This document shows positions 3,260-47,511 of a DNA stretch of 64,000 bases, in pieces. Made by a program: the position numbers and the translations under genes. The notes under the pieces are model-generated. The model worked only from the letters and a program-made list of their open reading frames with translations, made no database searches and was not told the DNA's origin. Positions within the stretch are counted from its first letter, which is position 1; every line of letters begins with the position of its first letter. The stretch lies in assembly GCA_963701085.1 (NCBI GenBank), contig OY969561.1, forward strand, positions 929,858 through 993,857. Direction: 5' to 3'. The stretch is from an uncultured bacterium (GTDB lineage Bacteria > Babelota > Babeliae > Babelales > Vermiphilaceae).

Positions 3260-4482
3260 TTATTTTTTTGATGCAACAATCTTCTGTATAATTTGATCTA
3301 AACGCTCTTCATATTTTTCCATTGATTTATGATCTACATCAGTATATCTAAATATTTTAACCCCAGACGCAGGATTTAATAAAATATCATCTGTTAAAAG
3401 CAAACGCGCCTGAGCATAATTAATACCATGTAAATCTTCTGGCTTATTACAATAAATCTTCAAATACGCATTGATACTATAATCACCCTTTTCAATATTC
3501 TGATCATTCTTTTAAATAAAGGATCTTTTTCCTGTTCTTTTTTAAATTTATCTTTTAATGCTGCCAATGCCATCATATTTCCCGATTTACCTGGTTCACC
3601 TTTATATTTTTTGCGTTTTACATTAGTACGAACCCAGTAGAAAATTCACCGTCAGCAGGAATACCGGTTATCCATGCTAAGTAAGCAATATCATCCACTA
3701 TGTTTTTGGGAACAAATATTTGCAAAAGAGACTCATGCTTTAAGAACACTCCATCAAATCCCATTAATTCATCAATATACGTATAAGATAGTCCAAACTC
3801 ATCCATTATAGCTTCATAATATGAGCGCTCCAGTTCCACATGAGACTTTTCTTCCATAAAATACGTCCATGTTGCTTCATTCTCAAAACCGGCATTTCCA
3901 AACGAGGTTATATTTGTTGACAACAACATCCCTGAGCTTCATTCTGATCATCAACAAGACCATGTGCTCTCAATTCTTTCACTAAAAACTCTTTTGCTTT
4001 GAGCTTACTCAACCCTTAGCCCTCAAAAGAACAAACTCTCCACTCTTTTGTGTTTTTGATCAATTAAAATGATGAGATAATCTTGTTAATGCATCTTGCC
4101 AAACCATCCATTTTTGAGAAGTCCCGTGATAAAACGCCCAATGGGTATTTTTAAATTCAGTCTCTTTTGTAATTACCCGAGAAATAATATCAAAATAAGG
4201 CACCACTTGCTTTGAATAATTTTCTTGAATAAATCTCTTTATTTTCTTCAACTGTAAATGCGCTTGTGTCGATTATATAAATCAGAGTAATTTGAGATTG
4301 AAGCTCTGTCAGATTTACCTCTTGAACTCCTGCATGCCGCGCTACCGTCTCTCGTTCTTTTTCTAATGCCATTTGCACAACAGGATTTTTAAGTTGTTTT
4401 GACAATACAGGTACAGTAGTCAAAAATGAGATAATAACAAAAAAAATTTTTATATACCAAATCTGTTATTTACGTTAAACAT
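3260..4482 (-). pseudogene. family A paralogue, decayed (at least 4 frame breaks)
   Basis: Fragments 3260-3463, 3618-3929, 4060-4251 and 4190-4423 are colinear with the 169-1518 protein (WAFYHGTSQKWMVWQDALTRL vs YVFYHCADNAWRVPQDLYTRL). The ATG at 4482-4480 overlaps the stop of the next copy (ATGTTTAA). Confidence 0.6.
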
Positions 4483-5776
4483 TTTCTTCTCCTTCTTTTT
4501 CAACGATTATTTCATCAATTATCTCATTTAACCGTTTATAGTATTCTTTTAATCTTTCCTTTGATACCGTTGAATAACGGTAAAACTGTACACCTGCTGC
4601 TGGATTCAATAAAACATCTGATAAAAAATAAGACGTACTTGTGTATTATTTATATCTGGCATTTCCCATGGTTTATTACGATAAGCTTTTAAATATCCAT
4701 TCACACTAAAATCACCCGCCTGAACACTTTCTATAAGATCTTTAAATAAAGGGTTTTTTTATGTTGCCTTTTTTAAATTGCTTCGCCAAGTCCTCCAGTT
4801 GCCATTCAGCAACGTGCTTACCCTCTTTATGTGTTAGTAGTTTTTTTTCATATACTTTTTTATCCAATCAATTGATTCTTCATGCAAAGGCATACCTTTT
4901 GACCATGACTGGTAACCAATATCATCAATTCTATTTTGCGGGACAAATATTTGAAGCAAGGTATTTTCTTTTGTGTCATACAATTCACAAGAGACAGTAA
5001 TTCATCAATATATTTATGAGTTAACCCAAATTTATCCATCATTTTTTCATAAATTTTGCGATCAGGAACTTTATGTCCTATATCTTTTAAAAAATAATAC
5101 CATCTACATGAAGTACATCTGTACCATTATTACCAAACAGTGATACGTTTACTGATAAAAGAATTCCCTTTAAATCTCCCATATCATTAACAATCCCATT
5201 TTTCTTTAATTCATCAATCAAAAATTCTTTGGCATTACGTTCAGGCAAATCCTAAATCTTAAAAAGGAAAAAGTCTTTCCAATTTTTTTTCCTGACGGAT
5301 TTTGCCGAATATATAACTGCGTATATACATCTGCGCAAGACGCCATTCATTATCAGTCGTATGATAAAAGGCATAATGATTGCTTTTCAATTCTTGTTCT
5401 TTTACCAAGCAATCAGAAATAATATTAAGATAAGGAATATATATCGGGAACTTGACTCTTCTGTAAGTAAATCTTTTATACGCGTAAGCTGTAAAAAGGC
5501 TTCTGTTTGCGTAAATTGATCTGATGTTCCTTGTGCCTGAACAACTCGCACTGGGGCTACCTGCGGTACTTTTGGTGCTATAGGAGCACCTATAAAAGGT
5601 TTTGATTCTATTTGAGGAATTTTTACAACAGGCTTTACTGCCCCCGACTGCACCTGTTTACCCTCAACCCCACCAAAAAACGATAGCAAGGCTACAAATA
5701 AACTTATCCGGCCCTGCCTTAACAAATTTTTAATTAACTGCTTCCGACTACCCTCTCCCCCTTTTAAATGCATCAC
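4475..5776 (-). pseudogene. family A paralogue, decayed
   Basis: N-terminal fragment 5402-5776 (leader LFVALLSFFGG; FTQTEAFLQLTRIKDLL vs FTQSEAHMSLLDIKKLI). Internal fragment 4860-5042 (MMDKFGLTHKYIDELLSLVN vs IFDKFELPHKYIKELMSLVN). C-terminal remnant ...NPAAGVQFYRYS...EIIVEKEGEENV* ends at 4475-4477. Confidence 0.55.
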
Positions 5777-5850
5777 TAAAATTTACTACCTGATATTATT
5801 CTAGTAGAATCAGAAAACAAATAGCAACAATTGCATTAAAAGTTAATCAA

Positions 5851-5886
5851 AAAAGCGCTCCAGGATTAACCCAGAGCGCTTTTTTT
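5851..5886 (-). terminator. rho-independent terminator downstream of truB (symmetrical, could act on both strands)
   Basis: 10-bp stem AAAAGCGCTC (5851-5860) / GAGCGCTTTT (5874-5883) with T-run 5880-5886. The minus-strand reading gives a hairpin plus T-run about 24 nt after the truB stop. Confidence 0.5.
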
Positions 5887-5909
5887 AAACTACAAAAAAA
5901 ACAAAGTCT

Positions 5910-9822: not shown

Positions 9823-12321
9823 ATGGAAAAAAGATACGACCATCAATTATGTGAAGCGGCGGCGCAACAAAAATGGGAAACGGATAAAACCTATGCAATG
9901 GAAAACAATCCAGGACCATTATACAGCATAGATACCCCCCCTCCAACAGTTTCTGGGACACTGCACATTGGTCATATATTTTCTTATACACAAACCGATA
10001 TCATTGCCCGCTACAAACGCATAAACGGTTACTCTGTTTTTTATCCCTTTGGATTTGATGATAACGGCCTTCCAACAGAACGTTATGTGGAAAAAAAACG
10101 CAATGTTCGCGGGCATGAAATGTCCCGTTCAGAATTTATCAGCTCTATGCATCCAAGAATCTCATGAAGCCGCTGAAATATTTAAAAAATTATGGCAAAA
10201 AATGGGACTTTCTGCTGATTGGAGTGAGACATATTCAACCATATCAGATGATTCCCGCAAAATATCGCAAGAATCATTCATTGAACTGTTTAATAAAAAT
10301 TATATCTACCGCAAACAAGAACCAGCTTTATATTGCACAACCTGCCGCACATCCGTTGCACAAGCAGAACTTGATGATTTGCAAGACTTACCATCATTTT
10401 TCAACGGATATTATTTTTAAAGATAGTGATGGCAATGATCTGATTATCGCAACAACACGCCCTGAACTACTTCCTGCATGCGTTGCAGTACTCTATAACC
10501 CTGATGATGTTCGTTACACACATTTACATGGTAAAAAAGCAATTGTGCCTCTTTTTGGTCAAACTGTGCCTTTTATTACCTGATGATTTAGTTGCAATCG
10601 ATAAAGGCAGCGGCCTTGTGATGGTGTGTACCTTTGGTGATAAAACAGACATCATTTGGTACAAAAAACACAACTTACCCTATCGCCATGTTATTGGTCT
10701 TCGATGGCAAATGCACTGATAATGCTGGTTTTTTACAAGGTCTTAAAGTTGCAGATGCACGTGTAAAGGTTATTGAAACATTACGTGAACAAAATCTTTT
10801 ACCACGGCAACAACCAATTACGCATTCAGTTAACGTTCATGAACGGTGCAAAAAAGAAATTGAATACACTATTTTGCCACAATGGTTTAGTCAGTATTTT
10901 ACCATACAAAGACAAATTTTTAGAAATGGCTGACAGCATCAATTGGTACCCAACATTTATGAAATCTCGCTACAATGATTGGGTAGAAAATTTAGCATGG
11001 GATTGGGGAATATCTCGCCAACGCTTTTATGGCATTCCATTCCCTGCATGGCACTGCCAAGATTGCGGCAAAATCTTACTTGCGCATCCTTAATCAACTG
11101 CCTGTTGATCCACAAGAAACACCGCATTCCGGCCCTTGCCCTGATTGCGGTAAAAGCAATATCAAACCTGATACTGATGTTATGGATACATGGAATACAT
11201 CATCATTAACGCCGTACATTTGTTATGACGTCTTTCAAAAAATTAATAAAGTTCGTCTTACAAGTCCTTTCGAAGAAGACGCCCTGCGTAGCTGGGGCTC
11301 AAATGTCCATGCGCCCACAAGCACATGATATCATCCGCACCTGGGCATTCGATACCATCGTAAAATCATGGATGCACAACGGAATCGCTCCATGGAAAGA
11401 TATTGTTATTTCTGGTCACGTGCTCGCTGATAGTAAAGAGAAACTTTCAAAATCAAAAAGCAATGCGAGGCATGGATCCGGTGACTTATTACTCCAACAA
11501 TATCCTGCCGATGCAATTAGATACTGGACAACTTCAGGAAGACTTGGTCAAGACATGATGTTCTCAGAAGAACAACTTAAAATTGGCCAAAAATTAATCA
11601 CCAAGATGTGGAATGTTTTTCTTTTTGCACAACCACACTTGGTAAATTTTGTAAAACACCGCATACTACACCTAATCAAATTGGCGCGATTAACAAATGG
11701 CTCTTGCACACGATCTCTGCATGCTTTGAAAAATATCAGCAATACCTTGAACAACATGAATTTGGTTTAGCGCTCAACATGATCGAACAATTTTTCTGGA
11801 GCAACTTCTGCGACAATTACCTTGAACTGATTAAAAATCAATTATTTAATCCTGAACAATATAAAGCTGAATGGAAGTGGAAGCAACGCGTTGGACATTG
11901 TACCATGCAGGATTGCGCATACTGCAACTGTATTCACCATATTTGCCGCATATCACGGAAACAATCTATCATGAACTATATGCGCAACATGAAGCCCTAC
12001 AATCTATTCATCAAACACGTTACCAGGATGTACAAACTCCGTATGTATTTGCAGCTGAAGCAGAAATTATTAATGCCGTTATCGCAATTGCAACACAGGT
12101 ACGTAAATTAAAATCAGAAAAACAACTATCACTCAAAACACCGCTGACCACCATGAATGTTTTTACTCAAACACAATCAGTGACAATCAACAATTGAACA
12201 ACATGATCAGTTGATCCGTGGCATTACGCAGGCAGTGTCTGTTGTCGATGCAGCTCATAGTGGCCAAATTTCACGCTTCACCGAAAAAGATGGCGCATGG
12301 CATGCTGAGGTGGTGCTCTGA
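9823..12321 (+). pseudogene. valS: valyl-tRNA synthetase, 10 frame changes as sequenced
   Basis: Eleven colinear fragments: PPPTVSGTLHIGH (HIGH), [74 protein letters not shown] (KMSKS), ...AWHAEVVL* with TGA at 12319-12321. Frames (start mod 3) run 1,2,0,1,2,0,1,2,1,0,1. Confidence 0.85.
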
Positions 12322-34069: not shown

Positions 34070-35273
34070 ATGTCATGCACTCACCACATTATTTTCTCAA
34101 TTCTCTGCGCTTCTAATGTTGTATTATCAATTGACTTCACAGAAAAATGGTAACCCGCGTCCACCTATAAACATAAACCCCCACTACTAATCCAATAGAA
34201 ACAATCAGTGAAACTGAAATTGAAGAGATGGAACTGGTTTTTAAATATTCTCCTCTAGAAGCACAGCTAATTGTTAATCACTTACAAGACACCACCTATT
34301 TCCCTGATGATAAAGACTATAGGTCAGCAATATTTTTTGGTGCACCTGGATCAGGAAAAACAATGATGGCTAAAGCTATTGCCTACAAAATGGCACAAAA
34401 AGGTTGGGATTGTAAATTTGTATCAAGCACCTCTCTTTTTGGAGGGCATCGCGATCAAACAGCTATGCGCGTTACACAAGAATTGGAATCAATTGTCGCA
34501 TCAAAAAAACCTACTATCATAATAATTGACGAACTACACCGACTCCTTGAAAATGCAGACAGCAAACATCACGATACTGATTCAACATCAACAGCATTAT
34601 GGACATTTCTTGATAGTCAAGAAAGCAATGAAAACTTCTTTCTCATTGGGACTATGAATCGCATTGATAAGCTACCTCAACCGTTCAAAAGTAGAATTAT
34701 TTCTGACTATATACATTTTCCGCTCGCAACAGATCCTAAAATTAAAAACATGCTCGTTCGCATTTATTTAACAACCAAAAATAGCGTTTTTCATGAAGAA
34801 GTGAATGATGATTTTTTAAATAAAGAATTGGAAAAAATAAATGATTGAGCTGGAAGATGTTTAAAAAAAATATGCCGAGCAATAGGTAAAACAAATATAA
34901 GAAATGAATGAAAAAAACGTTCTAAATCTGTGATTAAAAAAGCCGTCATAACACAAGTTGTAGACGAGCATATAAAAAGAAAGGCTGCAATAAAATACGA
35001 TTGGGTAGATGAAACTGATGATGAGCGGCAAAATCGTCATCATAAAGAAAATAAGTAGAAGCACAAGAAAGACATTTCGTTGAACAACTAATAATACAAA
35101 TTACTTCGAGCTATGAACACAACCCTCTACTTAATCTTAGACAGCTTATACATGGAGACGAATCAGGACTCGTGTCTTTAATTTCAGACGAGCAACAACA
35201 AATCTATGCCGACATTATGGCAAAAACCCGGGCAAGAAGAGAAAACGCAAAAAAAAACAATACATATAAATGA
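34070..35273 (+). pseudogene. AAA+ ATPase with hydrophobic N-terminus, copy 1 (in-frame TGA plus several frame changes as sequenced)
   Basis: GGAG 8 nt before ATG 34070 (MSCTHHIIFSILCASNVVLS). Walker A GAPGSGKT, Walker B IIIIDELH, sensor region LIGTMNRIDKLPQPFKSRI (34228-34848). TGA at 34846-34848 is in frame with ..AGRCLKKICRAIGKTNIRNE. Further fragments run to TGA 35271-35273. Confidence 0.6.
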
Positions 35274-35291: not shown

Positions 35292-36505
35292 ATGAACAAA
35301 TTTATATTCATTACCCTAATGCTTTAATCGAATACCTTATTGTCAGATCAAGATAGCTCAGAAAAACCTATAGAAAAAGAGCCTCGCATTAAAATCACAC
35401 CACTATACACGCCTGATTTGGAAAATCGGCAACAGGCTCAAACTCCTTCAGAAGATATAAATCAAGCAAACAACACTCAAGAAAATCCTCCTCAAAAGCC
35501 AACAGCTAGGGCATTAATACTACCTGCTGAATGGATCTTAGAATCATCAATGGAAAGTGCACCGGAATTATTAAAAGGTATTTTTTGCTACTTACAATCA
35601 CGTTCACATTGCATGGATGAATCACAACTCTCTGTAGCTATACCATCTTGCCATCGATTTATTTTAGTGGGGCCGCCTGGATCAGGAAAAACAACCTTAG
35701 CCCATGCAATGGCACATATGCTTGGCTATTCTATAGTATTTGTTCCAGCAACAGGTCTTTTGGGGCGCTTTAGAAATGAAACAGCTAAGAATATACAAAA
35801 TTTGTTAAGAGAACAAAATAATGATGAAAAAACAATATCAGTGAGAACCATAAATAATGAACAATCACAAACAACAGACATTCTCAAACGGCTGCCGCTT
35901 TTTGGCTTGCCCTTGATGACATAGAAAAGCGTAACCCCAATGTTATTTTTATTGGTACAGCCAATAACGTTGATAAATTACCACCGGAAATAAAAAGTCG
36001 CTTTTCTGGAAAAGTTATTACCATGCCATTGCCTGATAAAAATCAAAAAATCAAGGCGTTCAAAAATAGCATAGATCATGATCTATCAATAGCATTAGAC
36101 AATTCAATTAATGATGTATTTATTGCAAAAATGATACAGCAAATAAAAAATTGCTCAATGCGTGATGTACAATTAATTATCGATATAGCAAAAATGTTTC
36201 GCTATGCTGAAGGGCCTGTAACCGAGCCTTTTATTATTTTAACAAAAGCTCACTTTCAGCGAGTACTTGATGAGCTACAAGCTGAATCTGAAGTATTACA
36301 AAAAAGCTTTTCTGATAGACTTTGTGAAAAATTACAACCTTGGGGAGTAGTTTTTGGTATAGCTGCTAATGCTTGTGTTTTAGCAAGAGCTTCATCTGAC
36401 TTATTAAGAAGCAATCCTGAAGTTTTGCAAAAAATACAATCATTATGGTCAAAAATTTTATTCAACAACAATAGCATTCCGGGCACATTACAATGCTTCA
36501 TTTAA
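35292..36505 (+). pseudogene. AAA+ ATPase with hydrophobic N-terminus, copy 2 (about 2 frame changes as sequenced)
   Basis: MNKFIFITLML leader scrap, Walker A GPPGSGKT (35340-35924). The frame switches near 35865-35880 into ..AAAFWLALDDIEKRNPNVIFIGTANNVDKLPPEIKSRF.., continuing as 36023-36505. Confidence 0.6.
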
Positions 36506-37044
36506 ACAAAAGTGCACTAAGCATAATTATTACTCTTTTTATTTACTGTAATACTTATACAATAACACCTCTGACACCTGAGGTATGGATTGCTTCAAAA
36601 ATTGATACTAGTCCTTATAATTGCACTATAGAAACGTCTATAGAAACAATTACATCTTATACGATTACTCATGAAAATCGTATTATGCTTGAGCAAGATT
36701 ACTTTAATCGTGAAACAGGAGAGATAGGTCATAGAAGCATGCAGATTTACCCTGATGATTCTCTTTCGAACAACTTTAATTCTTTTGATACAAACCTATC
36801 TCATAATCATTCAGATTCACCGCTACATTCAAATAATACTGACTCTTCTGGCAAATCAACCATGCCATCATATGCAACTGATTGGCAAGATGCTCATTCG
36901 AAACAGTCTAGAGAAGAATCTTGTAAACAAGAAGCTCTAGAAAGAGAAATACACAATATGGAAAATAATCAAACAATACGAACATATAATACAAGCAATA
37001 TACTTAATTATTTGAACAATTTGAATCAGCCGACAGCCTTATAA
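36493..37044 (+). CDS. secreted S/N/T-rich hypothetical protein
   Basis: Start overlaps the preceding stop. Hydrophobic leader LSIIITLFIYC. Low-complexity C-terminal half. Confidence 0.45.
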   Translation: MLHLNKSALSIIITLFIYCNTYTITPLTPEVWIASKIDTSPYNCTIETSIETITSYTITHENRIMLEQDYFNRETGEIGHRSMQIYPDDSLSNNFNSFDTNLSHNHSDSPLHSNNTDSSGKSTMPSYATDWQDAHSKQSREESCKQEALEREIHNMENNQTIRTYNTSNILNYLNNLNQPTAL

Positions 37045-37189
37045 CAGCATTATCATCCCCAATAATTAGCACACACATTCAGAAAACTAAATATCTATTG
37101 CGGATAAATGTATAGAAAAAGGTAAGGTTTAGAAAAAAACAGTATGAAGTGATCAACTAACTTTTCTTGATCTATTAATATCAGGAGAG

Positions 37190-39279
37190 ATGACACGACT
37201 GCTCACGCACATACAACATCCTAATTTAGCTATTGCCGAAATTGCTTTTCACATATTAAAAGATTGCTGGCCTTGGAAACGAAATTATACATTTTTAATC
37301 CCTAGCTTGGCTAATGATACTGAAGAGTCAGATTATATTACAAATTTAGGCATCGACATAATGAAAATCGTTGAAAGAGATTATATAACGCGTGAAGACT
37401 ATATTGCAAAATATACTAATGCACAATCCCTCAAAATAGTACGAGGATATAAAGAAAAATGCATTCTGTTACAAAAAAAAGGTTCTCTCGATGGTCTTTC
37501 TAGTGAAACACATCGTTTATATAATCATGTTATTAAAAATGGCGAAAAGAATAACCTTACAGACAACATATGTCTCGCAATAGCTGAAAAAACCTATCTT
37601 AATCCAGTAACCACTTTTTTACATACAATTGTACATGCTCCATCTCTTGAAGAAGCACACAATGCACTAATTTAGAAACGAAAATATTAAATCAAGCAAA
37701 CAAAGAGAATATTAATCTTGATTCCACAATTAAAGATTGGATCATTAAAAAATATGAATATGATGTACTCGCAGCAGCCTGTAATTGTCATAGATCACAT
37801 GCTGATTATAGTAATAAATCTCCTTTTATTAATCTTTTTTCTTCTACTTTACACAACAACGACTCTATTCTTTCCAGTCCTCTGTATACTGTGATGCATA
37901 ATGTACAACAAAAACCTTTACCCATATCGCATGAAAACTTAACTCATCTTGTAAACCAAATTTCAGAACAGTTCAAATCTCTTAATATTACCGATCCTAT
38001 TGAACAAAAACAGGTCCTGATCGAAGACTTTGGTGTGGATATTATAGAGCTTGTCAACAACACCTATAAAAATCGGCCAGATCACAAAGATTTGGTTAAT
38101 TCTTTTACCTCTATTGATGTACACGCTCAATCCATAAACATACTCAATAATTGTCATGATTATACATCAGTAGGGCAACAATTTGATATAATGGCAGAAC
38201 ACGTTTTTCATAATGCAAAATTATGCAAACTCGATTTTGTACCAGAAGTAGAAAACCACATACTTGATTCAATACATATCATAAAAGCGCCACAAAATGA
38301 TGCTGAATTCGTGTTTAATATAACAGTGGTTGATCACCTACTAACTGACATTCAACATAAAGTGGATAATATTGTTGAAGGAAAATCAACGTCATATATA
38401 GAGCGAGGGTCAGAACTCTTCACGCGGGCAATAGTAAAATTTATTAAAGGACTCAATCCTGTTACACAAGCAAAAAGTGTAGGTGAGCTTCTCCAAGGTG
38501 CAGGACATCTTGCAAAGCACGTAATACAACACCCTATCAACTCATTACATACCCTACGTGAAATAGACATAAAAACATGTGAATTTTTAGTCGAAACCGC
38601 AATGTTTACATCAGATACTATTTTTGGACAAAATTACTTAACACCAGAAGAATATCAACAACGATGTGATCTGTTTTGGAAAGTTACTGAATCTGTATCA
38701 GCAGAACATGTTGTTGATTTAGTAGCCCAAATAACAGCAGATTTTGCTTTTGGTAAAGGATTTGCTAAGGCATTTATTTATCTTAAAGAAATAGATGCAG
38801 CAAGCAAATTAGAAAATTATGCTGCAAAAATAGCAGATAAATTGAAACAAGCAGTTGATACTCATCTTGCAGATAACCCTATTCTCGTCACGGCTGAAGG
38901 TATCGTACTCAAAACTTCTAATGATCTTAAAAAGTTTGGTGAAAAAATAAAAAATGGTTCAATAGGTCAAAAGGTAATCTTACATGTAAACAATATGAAA
39001 GAGTTTTTTGAACTACCATTCGGTCAGACGTTACATCCACATTCTTTAAAAACTTCTTATCAATACCAAAAGTTTTCGATCTACAAGCTAACAAAAAATA
39101 TACCTGAAACACGCTTAAAGAAAGGATACTTCTATTATTTAGATCGTTTACACGGCGATCATCTAGAAGTATTTGATAAGCAACTAAGAGTAGCAGCTGT
39201 TTATAATTTAGATGGGACTTTTAATATGGCAAAATTTGAGGCGGCACAGCAGGCTGGCCGCACTATTAAATTAACTTGA
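37190..39279 (+). CDS. large (about 695 aa) protein with a colicin-E3-like C-terminal toxin motif; one frame change near 37665-37675 as sequenced
   Basis: AGGAGAG before ATG 37190. The frame of 37891-39279 is open back to 37651 and overlaps the end of 37190-37675 (..EEAHNAL / NLETKILNQ..), so one gene is likely. C-terminus KKGYFYYLDRLHGDHLEVFDKQLRVAAVYNLDGTFNMAKFEAAQQAGRTIKLT*. Confidence 0.55.
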
Positions 39280-39286
39280 GATAAAA

Positions 39287-39589
39287 ATGGAAAATGAATT
39301 CAAAAAAATATTAACCTTCTTAGAAAAATTAAATAACAACGCTCCAAAAAAAATTATTCTCTCTTCTGAACTACAAGAAGAATACGATAATATAAAAGAT
39401 TTAAATAGGCTAAATAATGAAACCTTAAAACATCTTAACTTACTAAAAAAAGTTAACCCTTCTTCTATTGATGAAGTTATGGAACAAATTTGTTACTTCA
39501 ACGTTAATTTAAACACATATATCTGGCATATCGAAAGCATAAGAGACATAACTGAAAAATTTATCATGAAAGATTCAAAAAATGATTAA
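39287..39589 (+). CDS. small acidic helical protein, candidate immunity protein
   Basis: Starts 8 nt after the toxin stop. 100 aa, no signal peptide. Confidence 0.45.
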   Translation: MENEFKKILTFLEKLNNNAPKKIILSSELQEEYDNIKDLNRLNNETLKHLNLLKKVNPSSIDEVMEQICYFNVNLNTYIWHIESIRDITEKFIMKDSKND

Positions 39590-39908
39590 GGAAATACAAC
39601 AAATTTCACAAGAAATGCTTACATTAAATTCTCAAGTTTATGGTGCAATACTTTCAGAAAAAGATCTAACCACATTAGAAGAAGCTTTAATTAAAATAAA
39701 ACTTATTCAGGAAGGTATTAATAATCTACTAGATAAAACATTTTTAATTTCTTCAGCAAACACTAAAGAATCAACTGAAATAGTAACGAAAATATACGAA
39801 TTACTCGCTGAACTAGGCACAATCATTGAAACAATTAAGGAATTTTCAAGAAAATTTGTATGCAATTATCGAGAAGAATGGAATATCATCAACACAAATC
39901 AGGCATGA
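39582..39908 (+). CDS. small helical protein, candidate (orphan) immunity protein
   Basis: ATG overlaps the previous stop by 8 nt. 108 aa. Confidence 0.4.
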   Translation: MIKEIQQISQEMLTLNSQVYGAILSEKDLTTLEEALIKIKLIQEGINNLLDKTFLISSANTKESTEIVTKIYELLAELGTIIETIKEFSRKFVCNYREEWNIINTNQA

Positions 39909-39936
39909 TATGAATTACACAAATAATATAAATATA

Positions 39937-40171
39937 ATGAGCTGCCCTGGTATGTGAACAACAAGGAAATATTTATAATGCAAAGATACTTGATTTGGGA
40001 ATTATGATAAAGATATGTGATGAATGTGAAGCTTGTTGGCCTCAAGATCAAACAATCAGCATTAGCAATTTTAAAGGATTAACCACATTTTTTAAAGACC
40101 ATGGCTTAACTTACAAAGATGCCAAAATAGAAAATTTGGAATACGTAAAAGATCAAGATGTTCATTGTTAA
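39937..40171 (+). pseudogene. small zinc-ribbon protein (CxxC...CxxC), one extra base as sequenced
   Basis: Removing one G from CCTGGTATG (about 39950) gives MSCPVCEQQGNIYNAKILDLGIMIKICDECEACWPQDQTISISNFKGLTTFFKDHGLTYKDAKIENLEYVKDQDVHC*. Confidence 0.4.
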
Positions 40172-40172
40172 A

Positions 40173-40551
40173 ATGGAATTCGTTAAATTCATCAATTCAC
40201 CTCATGGAGGTTATATTTGCAAAAACGCATCTAATATAGAAATGACTATTTTAGGACGTTTTTTAACCAGCGATGTTGGAGGCGGGTTCTTCAGGATTTA
40301 AAAAATGGGGACTTACTGATAGTTGGGGCGATGCATGTAGTGGTAATCTTACCGCGCTGGAAAAAGATAACGATTATATACTACTTACTGACTTGTATTC
40401 AGAAGAAGAAACTCCAACAGAATTAAAAATGACTCAGGAACAATTTGTACAAATACTTACTAATTGGGAAGAAAAAGTCCTCAAATTAAAACCCAAAGAA
40501 GTAATCATTAAACATGAACATAACCAATTTATTATGGAAACAAAAGATTAA
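40173..40551 (+). pseudogene. small cytoplasmic hypothetical protein (about 125 aa), one frame change as sequenced
   Basis: ATG 40173 lies one base after the previous stop (TAAAATG). MEFVKFINSPHGGYICKNASNIEMTILGRFLTSDVGG.. joins ..SSGFKKWGLTDSWGDACSGNLTALEKDNDYILLTDLY.. (40273-40551) across a G-rich run near 40280. Confidence 0.4.
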
Positions 40552-40755
40552 TTGCTCTTCATTTTTTAAACAAATCAACACAATACTAAAAATTAAATTT
40601 TAAATAGCAGATTTCAATAGTCTCAAATATTCTTTAGAACTTTCATACACCATCTCTGAAATAAAATGCAGAAATGGTGTATTGTTATTTTTATATGCTT
40701 TTTTGACCTACTTCAAAAAAACAATTACCATTAAAATAAAGAATAAAGCGCTTAA

Positions 40756-40840
40756 CCCTTCAACAAGTTCAGGGTGAGCGCAACAAAGAACTGAATTTGT
40801 GTTTACTACTGATCCTGTCGAAGTATCAGAGTGAGCACAA
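40756..40840. repeat. RE-B half copy followed by a degenerate RE-A-like arm
   Basis: CCCTTCAACAAGTTCAGGGTGAGCGC (40756-40781), then ATCCTGTCGAAGTATCAGAGTGAGCAC (about 40812-40838). Confidence 0.5.
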
Positions 40841-40858: not shown

Positions 40859-41632
40859 ATGAATAAGACATCATTATATATTGCCACAGTAATCATTTTA
40901 GCAACCTCCGGAATAATTTGGTACCGAGCAGCAAAAACAATAATTACTGCCACAGAACTTGATACCGTTATTGTAGGCACTAACGCTGAATTTCCGCCAT
41001 TTTCATTCAAAGAAAATGATATCATGACCGGTTTTGATATCGATGTTATTACTGAAGTTCTTACACGGCTTAATAAAAAATTTATTTTCAAAGATATGCC
41101 TTTTGAGGCACTCCTTCCAGAAATTCAACTCGGCAACATTCACGTTATTGCAGCAGGAATCACACCAACCAAGGAACGTGGGAAACGAACACTATTCACT
41201 CGACCGCATTTAGCGGCCGGTAATCCATTAATTATTATTTCTTTATCTAGCCTACCTTTAACAGCTCTCGATGATCTTACAGGAAAAACCATCGTGGTGA
41301 ATGAAGGCTATGTGGCAGATTCTTATATATCAGAGCAATCAGGAATACATATTATTCGTCTTTCTTCTGCCGCAGTGAGCGATGGTATGTTAGCACTAGA
41401 AAGCGGTAGAGCTGATGCATTTGTTACCGCAGCATTTTCCATGAAGCCATATTTCGATAAATATAGTGCTAAAAATTTTTCTGTAACACCAATCCCAGGA
41501 ACAGAAGAAACAAGCGCATTCGCCGTATCAAAACATTACCGAGAACTACGCGATTACATGCAAGTTACGCTCGATCGTATGCAAGAAGATGGCACGCTCG
41601 ATACCTTAAAAAGAAAATGGAATCTTTTATGA
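40859..41632 (+). CDS. polar amino-acid ABC transporter substrate-binding protein (family 3)
   Basis: Signal anchor, then VIVGTNAEFPPFSF..., GFDIDV, AAGITPTKER, typical SBP_bac_3 order. Confidence 0.8.
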   Translation: MNKTSLYIATVIILATSGIIWYRAAKTIITATELDTVIVGTNAEFPPFSFKENDIMTGFDIDVITEVLTRLNKKFIFKDMPFEALLPEIQLGNIHVIAAGITPTKERGKRTLFTRPHLAAGNPLIIISLSSLPLTALDDLTGKTIVVNEGYVADSYISEQSGIHIIRLSSAAVSDGMLALESGRADAFVTAAFSMKPYFDKYSAKNFSVTPIPGTEETSAFAVSKHYRELRDYMQVTLDRMQEDGTLDTLKRKWNLL

Positions 41633-42291
41633 TTATTGACTTTAATCTTATCATTGAATATTTGCCAGTACTGCTCCAAGGACTCGTTGTTACGCTCCAG
41701 ATAGCAGGTTTTGGCTGCTGCATTGGTCTTATACTGGGTACCATACTTGCGCTCATGCAAACAAGTAAAAATTCTTTATTGCGCATGATCGTAACCGGTT
41801 ACGTTGTCATTATTCGTGGCACACCAATGCTTATTCAGATTTTTAGTGCCTATTTTTTATTACCGCAAATTGGTATACACATCTCTGCATTATGGACGGC
41901 AATTATTGCTATCGGATTAAACAGTGCTGCCTATATCAGTCAAATTATGAGATCAGGAATTTCATCAATTGGCATTGGGCAACTGGAAGCTGCAAAAGTG
42001 CTTGGTTTTTCTACTGCCGATACTATTTACTACATTGTATTACCCCAAGCATTACGCACAACATTGCCTGCTCTTGGTAATGAATTTGTAACACTCATAA
42101 AAGATTCATCACTTGCATCACTCATTGGCGTGGAAGAACTGACCAAGCAAGGAAATATTGTAAAAAGTAAAACATTCGATGCAATCACCGTTTATTTTGC
42201 TATCGCTGTTCTCTATCTTATTGTCACCTCAACAATCTCTTTCTTTGTTGCACGCCTAGAAAAAAGGATGGATCTTCATGCTCAAGATTGA
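41617..42291 (+). CDS. polar amino-acid ABC transporter permease
   Basis: HisM/GlnP-type permease: IIRGTPMLIQIF, EAAKVLGFS (EAA loop), LPALGNEFVTLIKDSSLAS. Overlaps both neighbours. Confidence 0.85.
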   Translation: MESFMIIDFNLIIEYLPVLLQGLVVTLQIAGFGCCIGLILGTILALMQTSKNSLLRMIVTGYVVIIRGTPMLIQIFSAYFLLPQIGIHISALWTAIIAIGLNSAAYISQIMRSGISSIGIGQLEAAKVLGFSTADTIYYIVLPQALRTTLPALGNEFVTLIKDSSLASLIGVEELTKQGNIVKSKTFDAITVYFAIAVLYLIVTSTISFFVARLEKRMDLHAQD

Positions 42292-42994
42292 TAATGTAAC
42301 CAAATCATTTAACAAAAAAAAAATTCTCAACAACGTATCTTTTACCGTGCAAAAAGGTGAAATTGCACTGTTTTTAGGTTCATCCGGCGTGGGTAAATCA
42401 ACACTGCTGCGTATTTTAAACAACCTAGAAACAGTCAATAGCGGAACTATTTCTTTGAATGGCACGCCAATTAATCTTACAACTATTAATACAACACACA
42501 CCGTTGGTATGGTATTCCAACATTTTAATCTTTTTGATCACCTGACTGTTGAACAAAATATCACGCTACCACTGGAACGTGTACTCAAAAAAAGTTCTCT
42601 TGAAGCACAAAAAATTACACACACATTATTAGAGCGTTATGGATTATTAGACAAAAAAAATAAATATGCCGCACAACTTTCTGGTGGGCAAAAACAACGT
42701 CTTGCTATTGCGCGTGCATTGGCAATGGAACCAAAAATAATCTGCTTAGACGAACCAACTTCAGCCCTTGATCCGGTACTTACTTCATATGTTGCTAACA
42801 ATATTCAGCACCTTGCAAACGATGGTTACATTGTTCTTGTTGCAACACATGATACCGATTTACTCAAAAAACTTAATTGCACCATTTACTTGATGAGTGA
42901 AGGATCAATCATTGAAACAGCGCAATCACAACAATTACATAATAACCCTGATACATTCCCACGTATAAAAAAATTTATTGCTGGTCATGAATAA
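42278..42994 (+). CDS. polar amino-acid ABC transporter ATP-binding protein
   Basis: Walker A GSSGVGKST, Q-loop, signature LSGGQKQR, Walker B IICLDEPTSALD, H-loop ATHD. Confidence 0.9.
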   Translation: MLKIDNVTKSFNKKKILNNVSFTVQKGEIALFLGSSGVGKSTLLRILNNLETVNSGTISLNGTPINLTTINTTHTVGMVFQHFNLFDHLTVEQNITLPLERVLKKSSLEAQKITHTLLERYGLLDKKNKYAAQLSGGQKQRLAIARALAMEPKIICLDEPTSALDPVLTSYVANNIQHLANDGYIVLVATHDTDLLKKLNCTIYLMSEGSIIETAQSQQLHNNPDTFPRIKKFIAGHE

Positions 42995-46225: not shown

Positions 46226-47511
46226 ATGAAAGTATCAATAAAGAAACTGGAAAAATCAATCCCGAAGCTGACCGGCGTCTATCTTTTTAAAGACGCAGAG
46301 GATACTTTTATCTATATTGGCAAGGCGAAAAACTTGCATCACCGCGTCAATTCCTACTTCCAAAAATACAACACAGACTGGAAAATCAAGCAACTTATTG
46401 ATGGATATGCTGATATAGACTATATTCTTACTCCAACGGAAACAGAAAGCTTGCTCCTGGAGGCTGAATTGGTACAAAAATATAAGCCAAAATTCAATGT
46501 GCTTCTCAAAGAAGGTCAACCCTTTCTTTATATCCTTTATTTACTCCTACTGAAACTCCCAACCATAGAGCTTGTTCGCAATAAAAAGAAAAAAGGAACC
46601 TATTTTGGTCCCTTTCTGCAAAAAAGTCCTGCCCGCAAAACATTCCACTTTTTAATGCAGACCTTCAACCTGAAGCTCTGTAATAAAAAAATAGAACTGG
46701 GATGCCTTGACTACCACATTGGCAACTGCGCGGGCAACTGCAAACCAAATTTTGATCTTACTGATTACTGCTTCCGGATTACTCTTGCACGAGAAGCATT
46801 AAAAAATAATCAGGATGGTTTTATACAAAACATTAAAGATCAAATGAAAAAATACAGTACAGAATTTGCTTTTGAAAAAGCACAACGCTTGCATGAATAT
46901 TTGCAAAATGTTGATACCATTTTTAACACACTCAACACACATTTCAGCGCAGATAAATTTGCAACTGATATCTTTGTTGCAAGCACACCAACGTCCCTAC
47001 TTCGCCAGACGAAAAAAACAGTATCAATACTGAACTGCAAAAATTTTTGGGCTTTGCCCTCCCGGTGCGCACCATTGACTGTTTTGACATTTCACATTTT
47101 CAAAGCAGTTATCTTGTTGGATCATGCGTGCGATTTACTGATGGGCAACCAGAGAAAAGTATGTTCCGTCATTTTAAAATTAAAACATTAACCGAACAAA
47201 ATGATTATGCTGCTTTACAAGAAATTATAAGTAGACGTTATAAAAACAAAACAGATCTTCCTGATCTTATTGTTATTGATGGCGGCAAAGGGCAACTGAG
47301 TGCTGCATACCACGTATTACCTGATGCTCCGATTGTCAGCTTGGCCAAACGTGAAGAAACAATGTATGGTCCACAGTTTCCTGATGGTATTATCCTTGAT
47401 ATCAAAACTAATGTTGGAAAATTGCTCATTGCGCTCCGTGATTATGCACATCATTTTGCGATTAGCTATCATCGATTAAAAAGAAAAAAAGGATTAACCT
47501 ATTCAAAATAA
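46226..47511 (+). pseudogene. uvrC: excinuclease ABC subunit C (short form without the HhH tail), at least 2 frame changes as sequenced
   Basis: GIY-YIG domain (GVYLFKD...IYIGKAKNLHHRVNSYF...YKPKFN). Local scramble at about 46525-46560. Switch near 47010-47030 (A7 run) into ELQKFLGLPLPVRTIDCFDISHFQ...VIDGGKGQL...LAKREE (47047-47511). Confidence 0.85.

Follow-up and report, generated by a model that had tools for sequence, protein, structure and literature searches.

A probable polymorphic toxin-immunity locus in a Dependentiae-like bacterium, with a toxin domain resembling Ntox29

The locus described here lies on the + strand of a 64,000-nt stretch of the 1,198,634-bp contig OY969561.1 from an uncultured bacterium (assembly GCA_963701085.1); the whole stretch, about 35% GC, is called the window below, and all coordinates are positions in it. 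We conclude with considerable confidence that this is a polymorphic toxin-immunity locus, made up of a toxin gene whose C-terminal domain (CT) matches Ntox29 in residue signature and distribution, two immunity genes (the open reading frames ORF1 and ORF2) and an orphan module (ORF3-ORF4). An earlier note on this DNA had likewise described a polymorphic toxin with cognate and orphan immunity genes, and this part of its account is borne out: the scaffold of the toxin occurs with variable CTs, the CT occurs on unrelated trafficking modules, and the downstream genes co-vary. The note had also annotated the CT as an E3-like rRNase, which is tempting but unsupported; the locus falls in the well-known class of polymorphic toxins.

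Modular architecture of the toxin and its immunity genes

A homology search with the large protein of the locus returned two classes of relatives. P0001 and P0002 share a central region of ~280 aa with the window protein (35-41% identity; in tblastn, residues 122-414 of P0001 match the window scaffold with 41% identity, E=1e-63), but their C-terminus is an EndoU domain (PF14436). P0003 to P0007, by contrast, have only the last ~95 aa in common with the window protein and carry other, signal-peptide-bearing N-termini, and P0008 has the same CT on an LXG (type VII secretion) domain. An alignment of eight sequences places the end of the similarity between the window protein and the EndoU-ended proteins just after the motif TAEGI, of which T334, E336 and I338 are invariant in 8/8 aligned scaffold proteins (Dependentiae-type toxins). 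The motif in its wider form, T[AP]EG[IV], is predicted to form a small beta-hairpin at the scaffold/toxin boundary and may be the counterpart of the VENN or PxxxxDPxGL junction motifs. The nearest scaffold homologs come from Dependentiae metagenome-assembled genomes (MAGs), and the intact relatives are apparently Sec-exported, judging by eye from N-terminal sequences that look like signal peptides. In an AlphaFold2 (AF2) model of the full 462-aa protein, which is of low confidence (pLDDT 55), the scaffold is all helices.

With clusters drawn at 50% identity, a profile of the CT family matched 610 representatives, and for 457 the match is at E≤1e-10. Among the 150 of these 610 matches that were listed, the CT stands without exception at the last residues of the protein, and the protein lengths range from 91 to 2697 aa. 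Long members carry TPS, Fil_haemagg and PT-VENN (the CdiA arrangement), DUF637, RHS, PT-HINT or LXG, and a scan of species-representative genomes located the domain in Streptococcus, Enterococcus, Clostridium, Bacillus, Pseudomonas, Enterobacterales and two Dependentiae MAGs. Because the same domain thus ends proteins with unrelated delivery scaffolds, it behaves as a polymorphic-toxin C-terminal domain.

The genes that follow the toxin point the same way. One toxin of locus L004, whose N-terminus is different, has the same CT (60% identity); downstream of it lie homologs of ORF1 (E=1e-28) and ORF2 (E=1e-26) and a second ORF1 paralog. In nine further loci ORF1 directly matches the first ORF after the CT, including those of Paenibacillus (L006, 6e-13), Clostridium (L005 and L011), Paraliobacillus and Bacillus (L024). 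The L004 copy of ORF2 matches L006_d1 at 5e-5, and ORF2 itself scores 2.4e-20 against the profile of the immunity family. Once iterated, this profile groups ORF1 and ORF2 with an ORF downstream of the toxin in 61 of 80 loci; the match is the first downstream ORF in 55 of them. As a control, the profile was run against all 13,771 six-frame ORFs of the same loci and gave 59 matches, 43 of them immediately past the toxin stop, 10 at a greater distance downstream and 6 in other places. In the family loci the immunity gene often overlaps the CT stop by ATGA. Since the family sits directly downstream of the CT across loci, we take ORF1 to be a cognate-type immunity protein and ORF2 to be its diverged paralog. 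Pfam has no family for the intact ORF3, the intact ORF4 or six immunity homologs, and NCBIfam has none for the small ORFs.

ORF4 belongs with a different toxin. Its homolog (E=1e-35) in locus L003 is the ORF that comes immediately after the EndoU-ended toxin P0001, and no EndoU domain was found in the window; for this reason we regard ORF4 as an orphan immunity candidate. The CT and the small downstream ORFs hence co-vary, as the earlier note had expected of such a locus: the same CT is followed by ORF1 and ORF2 homologs in L004, and an EndoU CT by an ORF4 homolog in L003. An ORF3 homolog lies directly upstream of an ORF4 homolog in the metagenomic locus L098, beside orphan EndoU fragments. 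Besides this pair of ORF3 and ORF4 homologs, L098 (1283-5523) contains a fusion of an ORF3-like Zn-ribbon domain with an EndoU-like C-terminal piece, an orphan C-terminal fragment of EndoU and one more ORF4-like gene. There is a transposase-like ORF close by, and the whole looks like an orphan toxin/immunity array.

Two loci contain DUF6980 relatives. In L004 a PT-HINT toxin (3679-5905, - strand) ends in a shorter variant of the CT motif (DALHGDHLEVFDK...NFDGT) and has downstream of it DUF6980 (PF22400) proteins and an orphan fragment in which the motif is mutated; in L038 a DUF6980-like protein (5312-5635) follows a full-length Dependentiae homolog of the toxin. DUF6980 could serve this CT family as a second family of immunity proteins.

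Nature of the C-terminal domain

Residues of the CT are numbered here along the modelled 106-aa segment, and their conservation was taken over 113 distinct family sequences. Y60, H68, E70, F72 and R101 are conserved in 100% of these, D62, H65 and D67 in 99%, G86 and K92 in 98%, N83 in 96%, and D85 and N89 in 95%. The AF2 model of the CT, for which 36 sequences were used, is of high confidence (pLDDT 93.8, pTM 0.86) and consists of a helix (20-28), five strands (29-36, 39-44, 58-61, 68-72 and 77-83) and a second helix (90-98). Because a cluster of His, Asp and Glu with Lys and Arg stands on a small basic domain (pI 9.6), we predict the CT to be a nuclease, probably a metal-dependent one. Curated families and known structures contain no relative of it that we could detect: among the toxin families of Pfam nothing matches the window protein or 36 members of the CT family, NCBIfam has no match for the toxin or three CT family members, and profiles of the CT family recover none of the PDB sequences at E≤10. 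Foldseek, which is weak on domains of ~100 aa, places nothing at E≤1e-3 among 350,542 PDB chains, where the best matches, to polo-box domains and to RNase T1, do not rise above noise (E~0.6-0.7, TM~0.25), and finds nothing at E≤1e-3 among the viral structures of BFVD.

The closest described counterpart is Ntox29, a predicted toxin domain listed in Table 2 of Zhang, de Souza, Anantharaman, Iyer and Aravind (2012; PMC3482391). These authors singled it out as a potentially metal-dependent nuclease from its conserved His and Asp residues, gave its conserved residues as 'D, D, HxE, D, K, R', and described it as all-beta, with an immunity protein, Imm41 (alpha+beta), reported only for beta-proteobacterial members (PMC3482391). 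In the CT, D62, D67, H68xE70, D85, K92 and R101 fit the published residue list. Like Ntox29, the CT occurs in proteobacteria and firmicutes, fused to FilH (type V secretion, T5SS), LXG (type VII secretion, T7SS), RHS, HINT and signal-peptide (type II secretion, 'T2SS') proteins. The CT thus matches Ntox29 by published residue list, architectures and distribution. In the literature searched no paper besides PMC3482391 mentions Ntox29, literal motif strings of the CT (DHIEVF etc.) were not found, and the CT could not be mapped onto the LXG CT types of Streptococcus suis, for which the published text is without sequence detail.

Two other kinds of nuclease deserve to be weighed against this assignment. 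One is a metal-independent RNase of the barnase/RNase T1/BECR type acting on tRNA or rRNA, in which H68 and E70 would form the acid-base pair and K92 and R101 would stabilise the transition state; we consider it doubtful. Many small polymorphic-toxin CTs are RNases, but Ntox29 was flagged as potentially metal-dependent (PMC3482391). The predicted topology, a helix and then a five-stranded antiparallel meander, would suit such an enzyme, but the dense cluster of D62, H65, D67, H68, E70, N83, D85 and N89 looks more like a metal site. RNase T1 is the only recurring enzyme among the Foldseek PDB matches, with insignificant scores (E~0.7, TM~0.25) that are at noise level.

The other is a derived HNH/His-Me-finger DNase. 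The canonical HNH motif reads DHIxP..GG..NL..H/N..K, and the CT pattern DH-I-x7-G-x6-NL-x4-N-x2-K runs parallel to it, so that D67-H68 would be the strand dyad and N83 the structural Asn, with N89 and K92 on the helix. The spacing of 15 from H to N is the same as in colicin E9, the model has the elements in the order strand (68-72), strand (77-83), helix (90-98), and N83, N89 and K92 are among the conserved residues (96%, 95% and 98%). However, no member examined has an HNH-type Pfam match and Foldseek returned no HNH match. An alignment of colicin E9, pyocin and klebicin DNases, built from plasmid records, gave in hhalign P=0.018 and a probability of 2.5% against the CT family, with the catalytic residues not paired. 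In the model, moreover, H68 lies where a tight hairpin opens, a geometry that we judge unusual. An HNH DNase is therefore, in our estimate, unlikely.

The identification made in the earlier note fares worst. It likened the CT to the 16S rRNases of the colicin E3 / CdiA-CT(ECL) type; on this reading the CT would be a homolog of PF09000 that cuts near A1493, and its D62/H65/E70/R101 would be equivalent to D510/H513/E517/R545 of E3. The 46-aa C-terminus that it quoted, LDRLHGDHLEVFDK...GRTIKLT, is exact and ends the + strand ORF that stops at 39279. By eye, KKGYFYYLDRLHGDHLEVF...GRTIK does resemble KGRKIYEWDSQHGELEGY...KRNIKKYL of E3, the four residues named are 99-100% conserved, and each of the two is a small basic domain in which a helix precedes an antiparallel sheet. 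For the comparison, the E3 sequence was verified, 53 relatives were gathered, all with PF09000, and 22 sequences were aligned (the E3 domain and 21 relatives). PF09000 matches neither the 462-aa protein nor 36 family members at E≤1, nor seven members at E≤10, and the E3 chains in the PDB sequence library are not among anything found by the CT family profiles at E≤10. With hhalign, the CT and E3 families align with a probability of 0.1-0.4% (P=0.17), so that the E3-like pattern is not above chance; the best piece, of nine columns, pairs GDHLEVFDK with GQHLGSFDP of E3 and hence H68 with E3 H71, which is not the register that the note proposed. The structural comparison suggested in the note was carried out with Foldseek, and the top 50 PDB matches of the CT model, a domain of a size on which Foldseek is weak, include none of the E3 chains.

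The residues themselves add to this. The spacings are off by one residue at several points, and the Gly of the note's "His-Gly" core is not conserved: the residue after H65 is Gly in 8 of the 113 family members and Lys in 86. For the E3 family, PMC3482391 gives as conserved an R, Dxx+[HK], an E and a second His (H72 in 2XFZ numbering), the last being the universal one, and E3 H71, which is invariant in the E3 alignment, has no His counterpart in the CT in the note's register. Nor do the immunity genes correspond, since ORF1 to ORF4 have no Cloacin_immun or Imm45-type Pfam match at E≤1, whereas the annotated E3 locus has a Cloacin_immun-type gene. On the features that can be tested (Pfam, PDB profile search, hhalign and Foldseek) the E3 rRNase was therefore rejected, and we think it very improbable that the CT is an E3 homolog; an E3-like chemistry, as opposed to homology, is conceivable.

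Several points weigh against the reading we prefer, a polymorphic toxin with an Ntox29-matching CT. The proposed identity with Ntox29 is a match to its published description. The CT model is mostly beta but has a helix at either end of its five strands, whereas Ntox29 is described as all-beta; the usual partner of the CT is a non-Pfam family of ~100-135 aa (or a DUF6980-like protein), whereas that of Ntox29 is Imm41; and Dependentiae lie outside the listed distribution of Ntox29. The ORF1 family matches no Pfam immunity family, and its pairing with the CT is not one-to-one, as related CTs are paired with DUF6980-like proteins in L038 and in the second toxin of L004. The fold has no significant neighbour in PDB or BFVD, so that the CT is called a nuclease by its residue chemistry, by its charge and by analogy. 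Finally, the toxin frame is interrupted in the window and is without an in-frame signal peptide, so that this copy may be inactive.

One further reading sees in the CT the first Dependentiae member to be noticed of a large family that is without a Pfam model, an NCBIfam model or a structure and that would have a new nuclease fold or catalytic arrangement and a dedicated immunity family. We consider this rather unlikely. If it were true, an obligate intracellular parasite of protists would be using the CT, on a lineage-specific Sec-dependent scaffold, against co-infecting relatives in the host cell or, less likely, in an attack on host or organellar nucleic acids.

Reading frames, gene integrity and surroundings

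The features of the locus are collected in Table 1. The stretch 37190-39279, which the earlier note treated as one large protein, consists of two ORFs in different frames (37190-37675, and the frame open from 37651 to 39279); the first start in the second of these is GTG at 37891 (462 aa) or ATG at 37894 (461 aa). The starts that the note gave for the first two small genes are confirmed: ORF1 begins at 39287, 7 nt past the toxin stop, and ORF2 at 39582, overlapping ORF1 by 8 nt. The ATGs it named at 39937 and 40173 are present, but the ORFs that they open are not intact, the one stopping after 6 codons and the other at 40301. Of the small proteins, all four are acidic (pI 4.7-5.4) and one has a CxxC...CxxC pattern. 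The small ORFs are translationally coupled, and no extra copies of the CT or of the immunity genes were found elsewhere in the window.

Table 1. Features of the toxin-immunity locus, in window coordinates
Feature	Position	Strand	Remarks
Toxin-gene N-terminal fragment	37190..37675	+	161-aa ORF, frame 2; homologous to L038 residues 256-340
Frameshift zone between the two toxin ORFs	37645..37680	+	Stop TAG 37673-37675; downstream frame open from 37651
Main toxin reading frame	37651..39279	+	542 codons stop-to-stop; homologs P0001-P0008
Scaffold, conserved, predicted all-helical	38101..38937	+	Common to EndoU-ended P0001/P0002 and L038
T-A-E-G-I junction motif	38890..38904	+	Boundary between scaffold and variable toxin domain
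CT (C-terminal toxin domain)	38959..39276	+	106 aa modelled; conserved core from ~38992, last ~95 aa
Putative active-site stretch D62-R-L-H65-G-D67-H68-L-E70	39142..39168	+	From conservation; catalytic role inferred
ORF1, cognate-type immunity protein	39287..39589	+	100 aa, pI 5.4
ORF2, divergent paralog in the ORF1 immunity family	39582..39908	+	108 aa, pI 4.8
ORF3, small CxxC...CxxC protein	39910..40171	+	86 aa if intact; as given 39995-40171
ORF4, orphan EndoU-type immunity candidate	40158..40551	+	125-130 aa if intact; as given 40158-40301 and 40273-40551

The breaks in ORF3 and ORF4 are most likely indel errors of the assembly. As given, the ATGs of ORF3 at 39910 and 39937 both meet a stop at 39955, and the remaining frame is open from 39941 to 40171. 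Contig L087, a short-read contig from another run, is 100% identical to the window over 39636-40565 once two bases are set aside: the G added in CCTGG at 39949/50 and the T added in GGGTT at 40287/88, each a 1-nt homopolymer insertion in the window. With both removed, an 86-aa Zn-ribbon-like ORF3 and a 130-aa ORF4 result, and the intact 130-aa version of the latter (P0116) is present on L087. Housekeeping genes of the window are also fragmented, which makes assembly errors the probable cause: UvrC is split in two at 46226-47511 (a GIY-YIG part and an RNase H-domain part), and a class I aminoacyl-tRNA synthetase lies in at least four overlapping ORFs at 9823-12111. Taken on their own, these two split genes point to frequent assembly indel errors or to unusual genome decay.

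The origin of the break in the toxin gene is less clear. Both toxin ORFs are colinear with L038, a 963-aa protein from a Dependentiae MAG (its residues 244-340 correspond to 37157-37447 and residues 471-959 to 37882-39270), which shows that they were once one gene. The 37190-37675 fragment has >99% DNA identity to contig L088, from another sample, in which the ORF runs further 5' to a signal-peptide-like start (MSCTHHIIFSILCASNVVLS). Relative to L088 the window is 4 nt short at ~37670 and has a 33-nt insert at 37118-37150, with two in-frame stops, which cuts off the signal-peptide-like N-terminus. Beyond ~37665, L088 jumps straight to ~40590 (L088:1-1028 against window 37153-37665 and ~40590-40780), and because the two ends are joined there the ~2.9-kb toxin/immunity cassette is absent from a related strain.

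These observations raise the question of whether the toxin gene is here a decaying pseudogene, with only the immunity genes functional and retained against the toxins of relatives. The 4-nt deficit is not a simple homopolymer slip, the insert brings in-frame stops, an in-frame signal peptide is lacking, the whole cassette has been lost in a related strain, and ORF1 and ORF2 are intact, all of which would fit decay. Against this stand the clear indel errors of the assembly (two 1-nt insertions in a stretch otherwise 100% identical to L087), the fragmentation of UvrC and of the aminoacyl-tRNA synthetase in the same window, and the state of the toxin frame itself, whose 542 codons of scaffold and CT are free of internal stops and keep every conserved CT residue. 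We regard a pseudogene as a genuine possibility, if not the probable one.

The surrounding genes are of mixed character. Upstream lie tandem AAA+ ATPase genes (34228-34848 and 35340-35924), with 36023-36505 possibly a broken continuation of the second; the peptide NNDEK..RTINNEQSQ near the C-terminus of ORF 35340-35924 is met again at the N-terminus of P0109/L088. The toxin gene is directly preceded by a 183-aa ORF (36493-37044) with a hydrophobic, signal-peptide-like N-terminus and a low-complexity tail rich in Ser, Asn and His; no similarity between this ORF and the N-termini of the toxin homologs could be detected, and it is not counted in the toxin gene. Immediately downstream of the locus, at 40859-42994, is an intact ABC transporter operon of the arginine/lysine/histidine type (binding protein, permease and ATPase).

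Proposed action and comparison with known systems

We propose that the toxin gene encodes a lineage-specific helical scaffold, Sec-exported in intact relatives, a T[AP]EGI junction and a basic CT of ~95 aa that would act as an exchangeable warhead after TAEGI, its exchangeability being what the comparison of relatives displays. The CT would enter a neighbouring bacterium and be toxic by cutting nucleic acid (RNA or DNA), with cleavage at a site formed by H68 and E70 with D62, H65 and D67, probably with a metal ion, and with K92 and R101 holding the phosphate backbone. In the producer, the acidic ORF1 protein would bind and block the CT, ORF2 would protect against variant toxins, and the ORF3-ORF4 module would protect against the EndoU-ended toxins of relatives.

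Dependentiae are obligate intracellular parasites of protists, and the closest scaffold homologs come from their MAGs, so that a toxin aimed at the eukaryotic host or its organelles, and not at competing bacteria, has to be considered. Host-directed toxin-like effectors have indeed been noted in amoeba symbionts, but immunity genes are taken as a sign of interbacterial use and host-directed effectors are typically without them (PMC3482391), and here both cognate and orphan immunity genes are present. The same CT is moreover found in CdiA, LXG and Rhs systems, whose targets are bacteria. A host target is thus quite improbable in our view, and competing bacteria are the presumed target of the proposed toxin.

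What can be reused from this analysis is a defined toxin/immunity family pair that is absent from curated libraries, with a candidate active site (D62/H65/D67/H68/E70/K92/R101). Dependentiae-like bacteria carry complete sets of toxin, immunity and orphan-immunity genes that vary between strains, which suggests bacterial competition inside protist hosts. In the literature searched no paper joining Dependentiae with a polymorphic toxin was found. The earlier note called the combination not a described system, a claim that does not hold, as sets of polymorphic toxin and immunity genes have been described in Odyssella, an intracellular symbiont of amoebae, where they are read as intraspecific conflict inside the host niche (PMC3482391), and as the CT signature matches Ntox29.

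Among known systems, those of Odyssella resemble this locus in belonging to an intracellular bacterium of protists with full sets of toxin and immunity genes, and differ in phylum, scaffold and toxin domain. The colicin E3/cloacin DF13 domain (PF09000; PDB 1E44, 2B5U) is, like the CT, a small basic C-terminal toxin domain with its immunity gene next to it, and the two have in common a superficial D-x-x-H...E...R-x-I string; they differ in having no profile, profile-profile or structural similarity, in their immunity families, and in the His/Asp cluster, which is denser in the CT. The CdiA-CT/CdiI, LXG and Rhs systems include members with the same CT family (in CdiA, after the VENN motif), and they also have the immunity gene directly downstream as well as orphan modules. 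The window scaffold, in contrast, has none of their delivery domains, being helical, restricted to Dependentiae and apparently only Sec-dependent, and its junction is T[AP]EGI in place of the VENN or PxxxxDPxGL of those systems.

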